Part shown: positions 58,694 through 63,034 of the stretch, piece after piece | Layout: each line of letters opens with the position of its first letter | Position numbering within the stretch: the stretch's first letter is position 1 | The notes under the pieces: model-generated | What the model was told of the DNA's origin: nothing | Database searches by the model: none | Seen by the model: the letters and a program-made list of their open reading frames with translations, nothing else | Made by a program: the position numbers and the translations under genes | Assembly: GCA_021787565.1 (NCBI GenBank) | Contig: JAJYLT010000012.1 | Location: 28,166-92,165, forward strand | DNA length: 64,000 nt | Direction of reading: 5' to 3' | Origin: Acidobacteriota bacterium | Lineage (GTDB): Bacteria > Acidobacteriota > UBA4820 > DSQY01

Positions 58694-58789
58694 TATAGCG
58701 CAGGAGCGGTGAGTAGGTGATGAGGTGAGTAGGTGAGTGGGGCGCGGGGCGGCCTTCGAAGGCGAGATGAGGTGATGAGGGGATGAGGT

Positions 58790-59930
58790 GATGAGGGGAT
58801 GAGGGCGTATGGAGGCCTTCGGGGGCAGGGAAGCCCGGTCATCCCGGCTCCGATCCCGGTCATCCTGAGGGCTGCTTCGAGGCAGTGCTTCCGAAGGATC
58901 TCAATCGCCGGACGTGCAGGGCCGTTGCCCGAGATCCTTCAGGGGAGAAGCTTCGAAGGAGGCTTCAGGATGACCCACAGCTCATGTGGACACGGGATGA
59001 GGAAGTGAGGAGAACGGGGAGAGGCCCTCGGAGGCGGTAAAGCGACCGGCCCTTTTTTTCGCCCGTTTACCCGTGTAGGAGCGCTCTCCAGAGCGCGACA
59101 GGGTGATGAGGTGATGAGGTGAGTCGGTGAGGAGGGCAAGGGGGGCCTGCGGAGGCGAGATGAGGAGATGAGGGCGTATGGAGGCCTTCGGGGGCAGGGA
59201 AGCCCGCCCATCCCGCCGTCGATCCCCGGTCATCCTGAGGGCTGCTTCGAGGGAGTACTCCCGAAGGATCTCCATCGCCGGACGTGCAGAGCCGTTGCCC
59301 GAGATCCTTCAGGAGAGAAGCTTCGAAGGAGGCTTCAGGATGACCCACACGCCGTGAGGGCGCGGGGTGATGAGGTGATGAGGGCGCGGGGCGGCCTTCG
59401 AAGGCGAGATGAGGTGATGAGGAGATGGGGGGATGAGGAGATGAGGGCGTATGGGGGCCTTCGGGGGCAGGGAAGCCCGCCCATCCCGCCGTCGATCCCC
59501 GGTCATCTGAGGGCTGCTTCGAGGGAGTACTTCCGAAGGATCTCCATCGCCGGACGTGCAGAGCCGTTGCCCGAGATCCTTCAGGGGAGAAGCTTCGAGG
59601 GAGACTTCAGGATGACGCAAACGCCGTAAGGGCGCGGGGTGAATAGGTGATGAGGTGAGTCGGTGATGAGGGCGCGGGGCGGCCTTCGGAGGCGAGATGA
59701 GGAGATGGGGGGATGAGGAGATGAGGGCGTATGGAGGCCTTCGGGGGCAGGGAAGCCCGCCCATCCCGCCGCCGATCCCCGGTCATCTGAGGGCTGCTTC
59801 GAGGGAGTACTTCCGAAGGATCTCCATCGCCGGACGTGCAGCGCCGTTGCCCGAGATCCTTCAGGAGAGAAGCTTCGAAGGAGGCTTCAGGATGACCCAC
59901 ACCTCATGTGGGCACCGGGTGAGGAAGTGA
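58790..59930 (+). repeat. Tandem array of 4 copies of a ~270-bp unit: GATGAGG microsatellite + conserved 60-bp leader + ~118-bp MITE-like hairpin (GGTCATCCTGAGGG...CTTCAGGATGACC)
   Basis: Hairpins at 58858-58975, 59228-59346, 59501-59617 and 59781-59898 are about 85-95% identical to each other. The arms are imperfect inverted repeats. Confidence 0.8.
59075..59099 (+). repeat. REP-like hairpin GTAGGAGCGCTCTCCAGAGCGCGAC (copy a)
   Basis: GTAG head plus a 7-8 bp stem. Identical copy at 60005-60029. Shares the GTAGGAGCG head with the REPIN-like family. Confidence 0.55.
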
Positions 59931-60004
59931 GGAGGGCGCGGGGAAGCCTTGGAAGGCGGCATCTTGACCGGCTCCCTTCTTCACGCCTTTATCCCTTCAC
60001 CCGC

Positions 60005-60029
60005 GTAGGAGCGCTCTCCAGAGCGCGAC
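60005..60029 (+). repeat. REP-like hairpin (copy b)
   Basis: See 59075-59099. Confidence 0.55.
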
Positions 60030-60113
60030 TCCCTCCTGGCTTCGCGCTGCTGACCGTCGTCCCCTGACCGTCGTTCCCTTGACTCCGTTAGCCAGTCAGC
60101 CCAACGCTGGGTC

Positions 60114-60737
60114 CTACACCATGCCGGCGCCCTTCAGCCCCACGAGATGGTGGACGAGCCACGCGATGGAGTTGCTCTTGCCGCTCCCGGCCGAGTGCTG
60201 GATGAGGTACCGGTGCCCCACACCCTTCAGACCGGCGTCCGCAAGAAGCGCCCGCACGACCCCGAGCTGGTGGTAGCGGGGAAAGATCTGGTCCTTCCTT
60301 CTTCTCCCCGCCCCCTCATCCCTGCGCTCGACGAGCTGGGCGTAGTTCTCCAGGATGTCGGTCAGGCCACGGGGCGTGAGGCCCTCCTTCCAGAGGTAGT
60401 CGGTCTTGATCCCCCCGGGGTTGGGAGGGTTGCCGGCGCCGTCGTTGAAGCCCTTGTTGAAGGGGAGGAACCAGGAGTCCTTGCCCTCGAGAAAGGTGCA
60501 CATCCAGACTTTCTGGTCGTCCACGGCGAAGTGCACCGCGCACCGGCCGAACTGGAAGAGCAGCTCCCTAGGGTCGCGGTCGTACTCCTTGGGGGCGCCC
60601 TGGATGTACCAGGTGTTGTCGTAGGCCGGGGGATGCTCGCCGGTTGGGGTCCCCGTGCGGACTTCCTGGCCGCTCCGCCCCGTCAGGGAAGCCACGATCA
60701 GACTTTCAAGGCCCTTCTCGCTCGTGTCGGTGGGCAT
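60114..60737 (-). pseudogene. hsdR: Type I restriction enzyme HsdR, N-terminal fragment (truncated after helicase motif I)
   Basis: PRYHQLGVVRAL (Q-motif) and IQHSAGSGKSNSIAWL (Walker A) match HsdR. ORF ends after 207 aa whereas HsdR is about 1000 aa. MITE array lies downstream. Confidence 0.6.
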
Positions 60738-60741
60738 CAGG

Positions 60742-61446
60742 TCACCTATTCAGGTCAGCGATCTCCCGGAGCCGGCCGAGGACCAATCCCTCCCTCGCCT
60801 GGCTGGTTTCATCAGGGTCCAAGTGTCCCGCAAGCGCCTCGCGAAAGGCGCTCGCCGCCAGAAGGGCCCTGCTCTCGGACGAAAGAAACTGCCTAAGGTC
60901 GGCCTGGCTTCTCGCGGCCTCGCCTACCAGCTCCGGCCTGCCGTCCACTAGGATCACCACATCCTCGATGTCGGCGCTCCGCAGGTAGTCCCCATTACCG
61001 CGCGAGGCGAAGGCCGCCAGTTTCGTGGCGATGAAATGCGGGGCCGTGATGAGGTGGATGTCGAGGCCGGGCTCCAGGGTGAAGGGCTCGGCGGTACGGA
61101 TGGCCTCGGGATACCAGCGGTTCGAGAAGCCGATCACGCTGGGATCGGGAGGCATGACGTCCACCTTGATTCCTTCCACGAGCCACCGGCACAGGGGAGC
61201 CTTCTCCTCCTGGTCGTGGAGGAAACCCAGGCCGCGCAGCCGCGCCTCCAGCTCCGTGTATTCGAAGTAGGTGGCGACCTCGACCACCACGTCCACATCC
61301 TTCGTGGGCCTGACGGCGGCTCCGGCAGGGTCGGTCACGAGCAACCCCACGACGGCACCGCCCAGGAAGACGACTTTGGATGGAAGCGGTTCCAGCCGCC
61401 GGGCCACGACCTTGAGGCGATCCAACTCCCCCCTGGAGAGCCTCAT
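60742..61446 (-). CDS. Nucleotidyltransferase, AbiEii/DUF1814-like (type IV TA toxin-like)
   Basis: FLGGAVVGLL...TKDVDVVVEV resembles the hGG/DxD NTase motifs of AbiEii. 4-bp overlap with the upstream HTH gene. Confidence 0.5.
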   Translation of the reverse strand: MRLSRGELDRLKVVARRLEPLPSKVVFLGGAVVGLLVTDPAGAAVRPTKDVDVVVEVATYFEYTELEARLRGLGFLHDQEEKAPLCRWLVEGIKVDVMPPDPSVIGFSNRWYPEAIRTAEPFTLEPGLDIHLITAPHFIATKLAAFASRGNGDYLRSADIEDVVILVDGRPELVGEAARSQADLRQFLSSESRALLAASAFREALAGHLDPDETSQAREGLVLGRLREIADLNR

Positions 61447-61946
61447 CGCAGGCGCTCGCCCAACATCTTGGCCGCCAGCTCACGCTCGCGGGCCCGGCCG
61501 CCCCGCACGGCGTCCGTAAGGGCCAGTAGTTCGTAGAGGGCTCGATCCTTGAGCGCCACCCCTGGGACGGAGCGGTAGAGGGGAGAGAAGCTCTGTCCGC
61601 GGACGGTGCCCTCCGCATAGGGCCAGACCGGCGGGTCTTCGTCGGAGGCCTGGATCCGAGCCGCCAGCGGCTCCGCGGCGTGCGCCGTGGGCACGCCCCG
61701 GGCCTTCCCTCCCAAGGTAGGTGGAAAGGCGTAGCGCACGCCGTGGGCCAGGAATTCCCGAAGGGACTCCCGGATAACCATCCGGTTCGGGGTGAGGAGC
61801 TTGGCCTGGATGAGCCGCTTGACGCCGCCGTGGACCTCCGAGGGGCTCATGGCGAGGTCCTTCGCGAGGCTCTCGTAGGTCCAGGCCCCGGGGCCCATGA
61901 GGGTGAGCTTTAGCGCGATGACGAGATCCTGCGGCTTCAGTACCAT
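61443..61946 (-). CDS. Winged-HTH protein, AbiEi-like antitoxin/regulator candidate
   Basis: N-terminal wHTH (YESLAKDLAMSPSEVHGGVKRLIQAKLL). Translationally coupled to the NTase gene. Confidence 0.4.
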   Translation of the reverse strand: MVLKPQDLVIALKLTLMGPGAWTYESLAKDLAMSPSEVHGGVKRLIQAKLLTPNRMVIRESLREFLAHGVRYAFPPTLGGKARGVPTAHAAEPLAARIQASDEDPPVWPYAEGTVRGQSFSPLYRSVPGVALKDRALYELLALTDAVRGGRARERELAAKMLGERLR

Positions 61947-62000
61947 GAGCAGAGTATATTCGCAATTCGCGAATCGTGCAAGCGCATCAAGTCAAAGGGC

Positions 62001-62231
62001 CTAATCCTCTTCTCGACCCCAGTCATAGCTCCCCTCCACCTCGGCGGCCTGGGGGAGGTCGAGGTCCTCGTCGGGCTCAGTGGCTTCCACCTCGGCCCCG
62101 GGCTCGGCGGGGAGGCTGGCCGCGGCCTCTCGCACGTCCAGCTTGCCGGTTACCGCGTCTGCAACGAGGCGCGTGCGGTACTCGCGGAGAAGGGACATTC
62201 CTGATTGCGCACCTGGCTCCGGTCCCGTCAT
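62001..62231 (-). pseudogene. hsdS: Type I RM HsdS C-terminal tail fragment
   Basis: SLLREYRTRLVADAVTGKLDVRE matches the conserved HsdS C-terminal helix. Upstream sequence is replaced by a MITE copy. Confidence 0.45.
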
Positions 62232-62344
62232 TCTAAGGGCCGCTTCGAGGGAGTGCTTCCGAAGAATCTCAATCGCCGGACGTGCAGGGCCGTTGCCCGA
62301 GATCCTTCAGGGGAGAAGCTTCGAAGGAGACTTCAGGATGACCC
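62226..62344 (+). repeat. MITE-like hairpin element copy E
   Basis: Homologous to array units. Confidence 0.7.
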
Positions 62345-62505
62345 GCACGCTGTGAGGGCGCGGGATGAGGAGGTGATGAGGTGAGTCCGTGAGTAGGGCG
62401 CGGGGAGGCCTTCGGAGGCGAGATGAGGAGATGGGGGGATGAGGGGATGAGGGCGTATGGAGGCCTTCGGTGGCAGGGAAGCCCGGTCATCCCGGCTCCG
62501 ATCCC

Positions 62506-62624
62506 GGTCATCCTGAGGGCTGCTTCGAGGGAGTACTCCCGAAGGATCTCCATCGCCGGACGTGCAGGGCCGTTGCCCGAGATCCTTCAGGGGAGAAGCT
62601 TCGAAGGAGACTTCAGGATGACCC
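62506..62624 (+). repeat. MITE-like hairpin element copy F (with conserved 60-bp leader from 62440)
   Basis: Homologous to array units. Confidence 0.7.
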
Positions 62625-63034
62625 GCACGCTGTGAGGGGCGTAATCGCGCTTCGCGACGCGCACCTGTTGCGAACGACGGCGGGGATAAAAGCCTGGACG
62701 AGGCCAACAGCCGGTGCTATAAGGGGGTTGGGGAACCTGCGGGGAAAGGCTGGGCGTGCTTGTGCGACAAGACTCCGTCACGGTCGAATCGTTACCGATG
62801 AGCTTTCTTCCTACTGCTGAAGAAAGGGGTTCATGGTACGTTCCATCACGTGAGCAAGAAACACCTTCCGATTGCGAAGTATTGCGATGAGTTCAGCTTC
62901 CGGTGGCCTCATCGGAAGGAAAGCGACGGAGAAAGTACGGAAGATGTTGTGAAAGGAGCGATGGAACACAGGACAAGCTACAAGAAGGTGGTGATGAAAT
63001 AACCTCAAGACGAGGGTAGAGAGAAGAGGGAACA

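Follow-up and report, generated by a model that had tools for sequence, protein, structure and literature searches.

The 64 kb stretch of DNA analysed here (the window) belongs to an Acidobacteriota bacterium and covers positions 28,166–92,165 of the forward strand of contig JAJYLT010000012.1 (assembly GCA_021787565.1). It holds the remains of a type I restriction-modification (RM) locus together with an intact two-gene cassette, PDC-M21, that encodes a winged helix-turn-helix (wHTH) protein and a nucleotidyltransferase (NTase). We consider it probable that a mobile RM island decayed here recently while the cassette survived as an autonomous unit, and that the arrays of hairpin repeats around it are older host repeats located at or near the outer end-points of the deletions. 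The order on the minus strand is a C-terminal HsdS stub (62001–62231, 76 aa), the cassette genes (61443–61946, 167 aa, and 60742–61446, 234 aa) and an HsdR stub (60114–60737, 207 aa), with all four open reading frames (ORFs) situated as described in an earlier interpretation made from the nucleotide sequence alone, here called the sequence-only reading. This remnant is bracketed by tandem arrays that contain six copies of a 116–118 nt hairpin.

Truncated genes in a repeat-rich region may be chimeric joins made at the repeats by a short-read assembler, and the Logan contigs of this region do stop inside hairpins. However, the Logan assemblies L002 and L003, which come from different sequencing runs, show 100% identity over 62259–59873, a span that takes in the outer junctions of hsdS and of hsdR (3') as well as the deletion within hsdR, and reaches into the hairpins on either side. 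Furthermore, ENA contig L001 matches the whole region at 99.99%. Assembly error is thereby essentially excluded as the source of the truncations. The copy numbers of the arrays are those of short-read assemblies, in which collapse of repeats is possible.

The 76 aa ORF corresponds to the last ~55 positions of the PADLOC Specificity_I models (profile positions ~395–448 of 454, E 1.7e-8 to 7e-8), and thus to the conserved C-terminal helix of specificity subunits. It shares 72% identity with residues 404–478 of the 479 aa HsdS of L099 (GCA_027388775.1), an intact locus that was located via the 167 aa protein and is used as the reference throughout. The homology is limited to 62007–62198, and ~65–75 C-terminal codons survive. 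Everything upstream of hsdS codon ~404 has been lost, including hsdM. The first ~11 codons of the ORF are derived from repeat and filler DNA, and its ATG sits in a hairpin, being the reverse complement of the GTCAT of that hairpin. At the junction ~12 nt of filler are followed by a truncated, ~17 nt pre-hairpin segment of a repeat unit and then by the hairpin, in line with the claim of the sequence-only reading that the outer ends of the remnant abut hairpins.

At the other end this claim did not hold. The hsdR gene breaks off between GCCGG and CATGG at ~60123, with a stop codon at 60114–60116, and the nearest hairpin (end 59897) lies 226 nt away, beyond 94 nt of unique DNA and a conserved tail sub-element of 133 nt. 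The 94 nt stretch (60030–60123) contains a 14-mer repeated twice, and matches neither another part of the window nor any of the fetched loci. The 207 aa ORF is 70–75% identical to the N termini of HsdR proteins with PF04313 (HSDR_N), and is homologous to HsdR proteins combining HSDR_N with ResIII/SWI2_SNF2. Compared with the 1009 aa HsdR of L099 it is 82% identical to residues 1–55 and 90% identical to residues 193–345, encoded at 60737–60573 and 60581–60123 respectively. The gap of ~140 residues between these two parts falls exactly at the nuclease core of the homologs (...LDxxLFINGLPxATFELKN...). The stub retains Walker A (GSGKS, residues 184–188), and lacks both the PD-(D/E)xK nuclease core and any helicase motif downstream of Walker A. 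Truncation after Walker A had been recognised from the nucleotide sequence, whereas the internal lesion was missed. It is a 420 nt in-frame deletion between 9 nt direct repeats, GACCGNGAY (GACCGAGAT and GACCGCGAT), with the junction within the microhomology at 60574–60581, and has the classic appearance of direct-repeat slippage unrelated to the hairpins. No Pfam match was found for the ORF because the nuclease core is deleted; neither NCBIfam nor PADLOC gave a match, and a search of PDB sequences returned only a chance P-loop match.

A recurrent split of HsdR after Walker A was considered and set aside, as the 120 matches listed were all ≤363 aa, ~1.75 times the query, which looks like a length bias. 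HsdR N-terminal proteins of 230–363 aa that end just past Walker A are found on contigs of up to 5.9 Mb, exemplified by MOMUL_08620 of Moorella mulderi (347 aa). These short proteins may reflect the length bias of the search or a truly recurrent truncation or split.

A tblastn search of the whole window with the HsdM, HsdS and HsdR of L099 detected no HsdM and no further HsdS or HsdR sequence. The locus thus lacks the three full-length subunits of a functional type I RM system, and hsdM and most of hsdS and hsdR are gone, as had been proposed. In L099 the gene order is hsdM (778 aa), GmrSD/DUF5655 (706 aa), Ymh (268 aa), a 333 aa protein, hsdS (479 aa), the 167 aa and 234 aa proteins and hsdR (1009 aa), followed by genes for a NikA-like protein, a relaxase and an integrase. 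L100 has the same gene order, and both share the 4 nt and ~55 nt gene spacings of the window. With blastn, positions 9749–11373 of L099 align to 62198–60574 of the window at 83.2% and positions 11786–12243 align to 60581–60124 at 84.7%, with no further alignment; when the remainder of the window was compared with the L099 island by tblastx, only short meaningless segments were returned. The arrangement hsdS–pair–hsdR is kept in L099, L100, L014 and L101. L101 is among the closest relatives (82% nucleotide identity across the cassette), and its hsdR has kept the nuclease core and reads past Walker A. These relatives support the proposal that the window holds a decayed locus, and no intact hsdM, hsdS and hsdR were found beside flanks identical to those of the window.

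The intact loci also vary in content. Besides the pair, L014 has a cassette of Lactamase_B-like and patatin genes between hsdS and the pair (L014 1818–3820), and in L099 the interval between hsdM and hsdS (4234–8507) is occupied by GmrSD_N/GmrSD_C/DUF5655, Hypoth_Ymh and the 333 aa protein. Across the pair and hsdR, L014 and L099 share 98% identity, yet they differ in hsdS and in cassette content, which points to modular shuffling. The L099 island starts beside a tRNA 3' fragment (1480–1560) and ends with DUF3631, NikA-like, relaxase and integrase genes (14339–20504), suggesting an integrative mobilisable element. No complete tRNA gene that could be the integration site was found in the window or in L099, and L099 and L102 contain no more than a tRNA 3' fragment.

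Codon comparison with L099 gave dN/dS (the ratio of non-synonymous to synonymous substitution rates) values of 0.07 for the hsdR stub (dS 0.80), 0.16 for the hsdS tail, 0.15 for M21A (the 167 aa protein) and 0.12 for M21B (the 234 aa protein). With L101 as outgroup, 17 synonymous and 7 non-synonymous codon changes in the hsdR stub were assigned to the branch of the window, and 28 and 4, respectively, to the branch of L099. Its 205 codons contain neither frameshifts nor internal stops. Neutral evolution leads to mostly non-synonymous changes. Since the observed changes are mostly synonymous, hsdR appears to have been under purifying selection for most of the history of the lineage, and the decay of the RM genes in the window appears to be recent. 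The units of the hairpin arrays, on the other hand, are 8–15% diverged from one another, a divergence similar to that of the entire window branch at synonymous sites. Compared with the low dN/dS of the stubs this makes the array units look older than the gene lesions, which they would pre-date unless the repeats mutate unusually fast.

The cassette is intact. Both proteins match their PADLOC models nearly end to end (M21A with PDLC04515, E 1.6e-38; M21B with PDLC04516, E 1.9e-63), and the two genes are adjacent and co-oriented, A followed by B with a 4 nt overlap, which assigns them to PDC-M21. PDC systems are untested candidates, proposed from their embedding in BREX, DISARM or type I RM loci (bioRxiv 10.1101/2024.01.29.577857), and a literature search for PDC-M21 by name found no mention of it. 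The pair is thus a "guilt-by-embedding" candidate, and the statement of the sequence-only reading that toxin or abortive infection modules between hsdS and hsdR are a known arrangement is borne out.

M21B (60742–61446, minus strand) is predicted to be a pol-beta-fold NTase of the MenT1/AbiEii-like type. The best structural match of its AlphaFold2 model (mean confidence score, pLDDT, 95.2) is Mycobacterium tuberculosis MenT1, 8AN4 (Foldseek E 1.4e-7, TM 0.52/0.61); over the structures 8AN4, 8AN5 and 8RR5 the E values range from 1.4e-7 to 1.5e-6 with probability 1.00 and TM up to 0.62, and a profile search of the PDB returned 8AN4 (E 8.7e-4) and 5UVD. The NTase motifs I–IV have been defined as hG[GS]...RxxxDhD (I and II), a Lys-containing motif III and a +DxxD motif IV (Dy et al. 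2014, PMC3985639). Motifs I and II (hGG-x19-RxTxDhD, starting at L28-G29-G30) and motif III (KLAAFASR, K142...R149, in the COG4849 form) are invariant across 38 homologs of M21B, where the invariant residues are G29, G30, R46, T48, D50, D52, D96, K142, R149, D159 and D162. Motif IV is approximate only, with RSADIED in place of +DxxD. By motif position, not by residue-level structural alignment, T48, D50, K142 and D159/D162 correspond to T39, D41, K137 and D152 of MenT1, which were targeted by mutagenesis (PMC10435456). MenT1 adds CMP (cytidine monophosphate) to the acceptor ends of tRNA, and MenT toxins are paired with unrelated types of antitoxin (PMC10435456). Judged from the model, M21B has both the structural similarity and the catalytic residues of a MenT protein. 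The match to AbiEii is weaker. PF08843 gave E 0.0011 and 19.4 bits, below its cut-off of 22.5, the PADLOC AbiEii models gave E 0.016–0.025, and M21B also falls just under the Pfam NTP_transf_2 threshold.

M21A (61443–61946, minus strand) is predicted to combine an N-terminal wHTH with a C-terminal domain (AlphaFold2, pLDDT 94.9), the latter without a structural match. It had been called AbiEi-like, which fits this architecture, but no AbiEi/COG5340 family and no AbiEi structure was matched. Upstream of the gene lies a putative promoter on the minus strand (61953–61981) consisting of TTGCAC, a 17 nt spacer and TATACT, with the M21A ATG 6 nt past the -10 box. It was not detected by a consensus promoter scan, as TTGCAC agrees with TTGACA at only 3/6 positions. 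The spacer contains a putative operator, ATTCGCGAATTGCGAAT, whose palindromic consensus TATTCGCGA-T-TCGCGAATA is kept in homologs down to ~50% identity, with one or two arm mismatches in some loci. The candidate site can be written in degenerate form as ATTCGCGAAT(C/T)GCGAAT. L097 has a different sequence at this position that is still palindromic. Taken together, the pair looks like a self-contained, autoregulated toxin-antitoxin or abortive infection module of the MenT/AbiE-like kind, while by the curated family tests it is not a member of AbiE.

The left mosaic array (58699–60029, plus strand) consists of four units of ~392, 270, 280 and 392 nt, and the right one (62199–62640, plus strand) of the filler and truncated segment described above, two hairpins and an octamer spacer. 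The four and two hairpin repeats of ~118 bp of the sequence-only reading are located at 58858–58975, 59228–59345, 59501–59617 and 59781–59897, and at 62227–62342 and 62506–62623. Each unit has runs of the octamer GATGAGGN, a small palindrome GCCTTCGAAGGC and one hairpin, and units 1 and 4 of the left array also carry a tail with the palindrome GGAGCGCTCTCCAGAGCGC. In a seven-way alignment the hairpin has the form GGTCATCCTGAGGGC...GCCTTCAGGATGACC. Its 45 nt arms are 76–78% complementary and so resemble the terminal inverted repeats of a miniature inverted-repeat transposable element (MITE), and its terminal 14-mer is over-represented in the window, with 15 occurrences where 0.95 are expected. 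Folding z-scores were between -5.2 and -7.3 for 4/6 hairpins. Tandem Repeats Finder reported a period of 280 for 59159–59963 (2.9 copies, 87% matches, score 1272). The two arrays have the same orientation, and 62224–62628 is 91.6% identical to 59498–59902 over 405 nt. A CRISPR-like array was rejected, the units having no unique spacers.

An exact-pattern scan with one genome per species revealed the element, together with the octamers, in four other Acidobacteriota metagenome-assembled genomes (MAGs). In these and in the window, the superfamily comprises elements of 88–123 nt bounded by GTCATYC...GRATGAC, and each full copy is an inverted dimer of two ~45 nt palindromic units, ATCCT...AGGAT. 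A solitary divergent copy at 57717–57833 (plus strand) has a different right arm and the outward tag CGTC at both ends. This tag is shared by hairpin 3 and hairpin 5; the other copies in the window have GGTC, the copies in L004–L012 mostly CGTC or TGTC, and all stems begin with AT. CGTC-tagged repetitive extragenic palindromic elements (REPs) have AT-starting stems, lack a dedicated transposase, and are found mainly as inverted dimers, in some cases within mosaic clusters (Di Nocera et al. 2013, PMC3733652). Tag, AT stem and inverted dimers agree with this description, and the arrays of the window lie between genes. The stem of 8–9 bp, the loop of 4–5 nt and the CCA tail of CGTC-REPs were not recovered; type A monomers are ~45 nt, bulged and have a CTC tail, and a ...GGGAATCCA end is limited to some short variants in L008. 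In the window as in the other MAGs the elements occur in mosaics with GATGAGGN/CCTCATCN octamers, the palindrome GCCTTCGAAGGC and the GGAGCGCTCTCCAGAGCGC-containing tail, and a 97 nt tail sub-element was found in L005 and L010. The hairpins are thus inverted dimers of CGTC-tagged REP-like palindromes, in mosaic arrays that resemble bacterial interspersed mosaic elements (BIMEs).

MITE-like is not the most apt label, as no target-site duplications were seen at the copies in the window or in L004, L005, L010 and L011; in L004 the flanks extend the palindrome instead of duplicating the target. No parent insertion sequence (IS) with ends matching the hairpin turned up in the 64 kb of host genome, where no dedicated search was made. 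Rfam gave no match at the gathering score, and permissive matches were at chance level (E ≥0.6). Only 1/39 predicted base pairs was compensatory (covariation term +0.18), a test without power here, given the high similarity of the copies and a right arm that hardly varies. When six type A copies were compared on both strands, five folded 9–15 kcal/mol better on the GTCATCCTGAGGGC strand, which in the window is antisense to all neighbouring genes. This bias hints at a strand-specific single-stranded form, either DNA or RNA. A literature search for the hairpin terminus GTCATCCTGAG returned unrelated primer matches only.

Loss of the RM genes around the pair is not limited to the window. In L013 (Acidobacteriota, GCA_049967655.1) the pair lies between an hsdS tail, broken at a different point, and ~95 hsdR codons, beyond which come an IS4-like transposase fragment and IS21 genes. 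L102 retains just the cassette itself, from promoter to stop codon, and a HigBA-like pair comes after it; the cassette is directly preceded (L102 1–292) by the tRNA-fragment region (82% identity) that is found before hsdM in L099. A JGI contig contains the pair without hsdR, and distant homologs (50–56% identity) are free-standing pairs in ordinary chromosomal contexts. A regex-and-fold scan detected no hairpin in the available DNA of any other locus that carries the pair.

In the sequence-only reading the hairpin was regarded as an active MITE-like transposon, the insertion and tandem expansion of which replaced hsdM and most of hsdS and hsdR. Several features of the locus invite this view, as the remnant is flanked by arrays left and right, the broken end of hsdS continues into a repeat unit with a hairpin ~30 nt away, and the element is multi-copy in the window and present in several related MAGs. 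The junctions themselves argue otherwise. None of the copies is flanked by a target-site duplication, the repeat unit at the hsdS junction is truncated and does not begin at an element terminus, the hsdR 3' junction leads into unique DNA, and the nuclease core was lost by direct-repeat slippage. Furthermore, the units have diverged whereas hardly any neutral decay is visible in the gene stubs, and RM genes were lost in L013, L102 and the JGI contig as well, without a hairpin in the DNA examined from L013 and L102 and, in L013, next to IS fragments instead. Destruction of the RM genes by repeat expansion is therefore not supported, and we regard it as unlikely. Alternatively, an already truncated hsdS'–pair–hsdR' fragment could have been inserted by illegitimate recombination into a single host array, in which case the RM system was never complete at this site. 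The common orientation and high identity of the two arrays, the short filler or unique DNA at the junctions (12 nt and 94 nt), the many contexts in which the cassette travels, including the bare copy in L102, and the relaxase and integrase of the element on which the intact L099 island rides would all agree with such a capture. However, the junctions fall at non-matching positions of the unit so that the two halves do not rebuild one array, as many illegitimate joins are needed as for decay in situ, and the IS1595 remnant and low-GC DNA to the right (see below) suggest that more foreign DNA was once present. We regard capture of a fragment as unlikely.

We thus favour recent decay of an island in place, with the following course of events. 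A mobile type I RM island with the order hsdM...hsdS–[wHTH gene + NTase gene]–hsdR would have entered an Acidobacteriota genome and then been cut by at least three deletions, leaving the end of hsdS, two pieces of hsdR and the complete cassette with its own promoter and operator. M21B would be a growth-arresting toxin that nucleotidylates tRNA 3' ends, and M21A would both neutralise it and repress the operon via the promoter palindrome. The pair may owe its persistence to being self-contained and to probable addiction or continued usefulness in defence, whereas the RM genes would have been dispensable once restriction was disabled. The arrays would be part of the furniture of the host, older than the lesions, and would mark the outer end-points of the deletions without having expanded into the genes. 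Long palindromes are fragile. The arrays may thus have favoured breakage, and palindrome fragility possibly contributed to the deletion on the hsdS side.

Several points weigh against this interpretation. The toxicity of PDC-M21 and its neutralisation are predictions, and M21B does not reach the Pfam AbiEii cut-off. Continued selection on the hsdR stub could also account for its low dN/dS. The age argument is weakened if rates of mutation or conversion in the repeats differ from those in coding DNA, as they may. The position of the hsdS junction in a truncated repeat unit and the common orientation of the arrays make it possible that the repeats were directly involved in one or more of the deletions. 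Decay in situ leaves the same traces as the arrival of an already truncated fragment, and a search for synteny with the neighbouring Band_7 protein in metagenome contigs (80 loci, 54–80% identity) found no locus with DUF488 or other neighbours, and hence no relative that shows the site before or without the island.

Repeats and mobile element remnants are also found around the locus. The host gene at 58268–58693 (minus strand) encodes a DUF488-N3a protein of the "active subclade" (PF22751, E 1.3e-45) and has repeat elements on both sides; its exact GTG-start sequence was absent from the protein collection, and a 129 aa version is called on L001. To its left are two decayed short CGTC-REP-like units of the GTCATTCCGG...CCGGAAT type (57880–58016, plus strand), which is also present in L004, L008 and L009, and a run of the octamer CCTCATYC, the reverse complement of the GATGAGGN octamers (58086–58132, plus strand). 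Beyond the right array, a C-terminal remnant of an IS1595-family transposase without recognisable ends is encoded at 62800–63002 (plus strand; PF12762 positions 121–152/153, E 2.7e-5, 24.7 bits against a cut-off of 27). The last part of the window, 63000–64000, has 51% GC and ORFs without Pfam match, and the recovered contigs all end at ~64000.

Elsewhere in the window a second composite repeat is present in two copies (30990–31150 and 35060–35210). It starts with the palindrome GCGCCTTCC-TCCGCTTCGCTCC-GGAAGGC, followed by G-rich heptamers (GATGAGG/GATGATG), a T-run and C-rich heptamers (CTTCTCA x7 or CTCCTCA x5). Intergenic octamer microsatellites (CCTAGTCC, CGCCCAATCGCTTAAT, CCTCATCN) are located at 32607–32672, 48904–49061 and 52592–52654, the first and last of these a short distance upstream of -10 boxes resembling TGTTATCCT. 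The same octamers stand beside hairpins in the Acidobacteriota MAGs L004, L005, L010 and L011, and therefore look like a lineage-wide feature. Finally, a duplication of ~400 nt (9950–10350 and 11950–12400), each copy with a hairpin half-copy in opposite orientation (GGTCATCCTGAAGGCTCCTTCGAAGC...), lies within the very long ORFs 2902–11337 and 11702–13396, which also hold a 246 nt tandem repeat (7759–8483).

If recent decay in place is the correct interpretation, the locus is a clean and datable snapshot of the decay of a defence island, in which restriction was disabled first by in-frame loss of the nuclease core, the RM genes were then trimmed, and a toxin-like cassette was left. This would support the view that cassettes embedded in RM loci are autonomous modules. 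It also leads to a prediction for PDC-M21, namely MenT-like toxicity towards tRNA that is neutralised and autoregulated by the wHTH partner on a defined palindrome. A more far-reaching speculation, which we consider improbable, is that the hairpin arrays are an undescribed, large-monomer branch of the CGTC-REPs and of REP doublets forming hairpins (REPINs) in Acidobacteriota, and act as fragile, deletion-promoting fronts through breaks and illegitimate joining, with erosion halted at an addictive MenT-like NTase/wHTH cassette. Were this true, the repeated survival of PDC-M21 in the window, L013, L102 and the JGI contig would be a natural experiment in which cassettes outlive host defence through post-segregational killing. 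Current understanding is not overturned by the locus. It shows the ordinary decay of a defence island and not a new kind of system, and combines known kinds: a decayed type I RM system, a MenT/AbiE-like PDC-M21 cassette and REP/BIME-like arrays, of which the repeat family is an unusual variant.

Comparison with known systems illustrates this combination. The cassette agrees with PADLOC PDC-M21 in the nearly full-length matches of both proteins and in gene order. With AbiE and MenAT systems (Dy et al. 2014, PMC3985639; Xu et al. 2023, PMC10435456) it shares the bicistronic layout with the regulator or antitoxin gene first, and M21B has the pol-beta fold, motifs I–II including the family-specific Arg, a Thr equivalent to MenT1 T39, and the Lys of motif III; as in AbiE, where AbiEi has this role, the wHTH partner has a palindromic putative operator. 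It differs from them in that motifs I and II of M21B are separated by 19 residues instead of 15, motif III has the COG4849 form KLxAaxxR and motif IV reads RxxDxxD instead of +DxxD, whereas M21A has no AbiEi (COG5340) match and is unlike the 68 aa MenA1. Embedding of cassettes in type I RM loci has been documented as "guilt-by-embedding" (Payne et al. 2024, bioRxiv 10.1101/2024.01.29.577857). As in these and PrrC-type loci, the cassette of the window is located between hsdS and hsdR in the same orientation, exactly the arrangement seen in L099, L014 and L101, but its RM system is nonfunctional, with no hsdM, ~75 residues of HsdS and residues 1–55 and 193–345 of HsdR.

The hairpins, like CGTC-REPs, REPINs and BIMEs, are extragenic palindromes in which a CGTC (or GGTC/TGTC) tag stands outside an AT-starting stem, form inverted dimers that can fold as one long hairpin, and occur in mosaic clusters with other short repeats; as for CGTC-REPs, no transposase was associated with them within the DNA examined. 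With bacterial MITEs they have in common that they are small, non-coding and multi-copy, have inverted-repeat arms and lie beside disrupted genes, and they differ from these in the lack of target-site duplications, the tandem mosaic units and the truncation, away from an element terminus, of the unit at the hsdS junction. Compared with the published CGTC-REPs (PMC3733652), the monomers are ~45 nt with an imperfect, bulged stem instead of 8–9 bp with a 4–5 nt loop, the tail is CTC instead of CCA, the units are interleaved with GATGAGGN octamer microsatellites in tandem units of ~275 nt, and the host belongs to Acidobacteriota, a phylum unlisted in that paper. The arrays thereby extend CGTC-type REP-like elements to Acidobacteriota, in a large-monomer, octamer-interleaved form.

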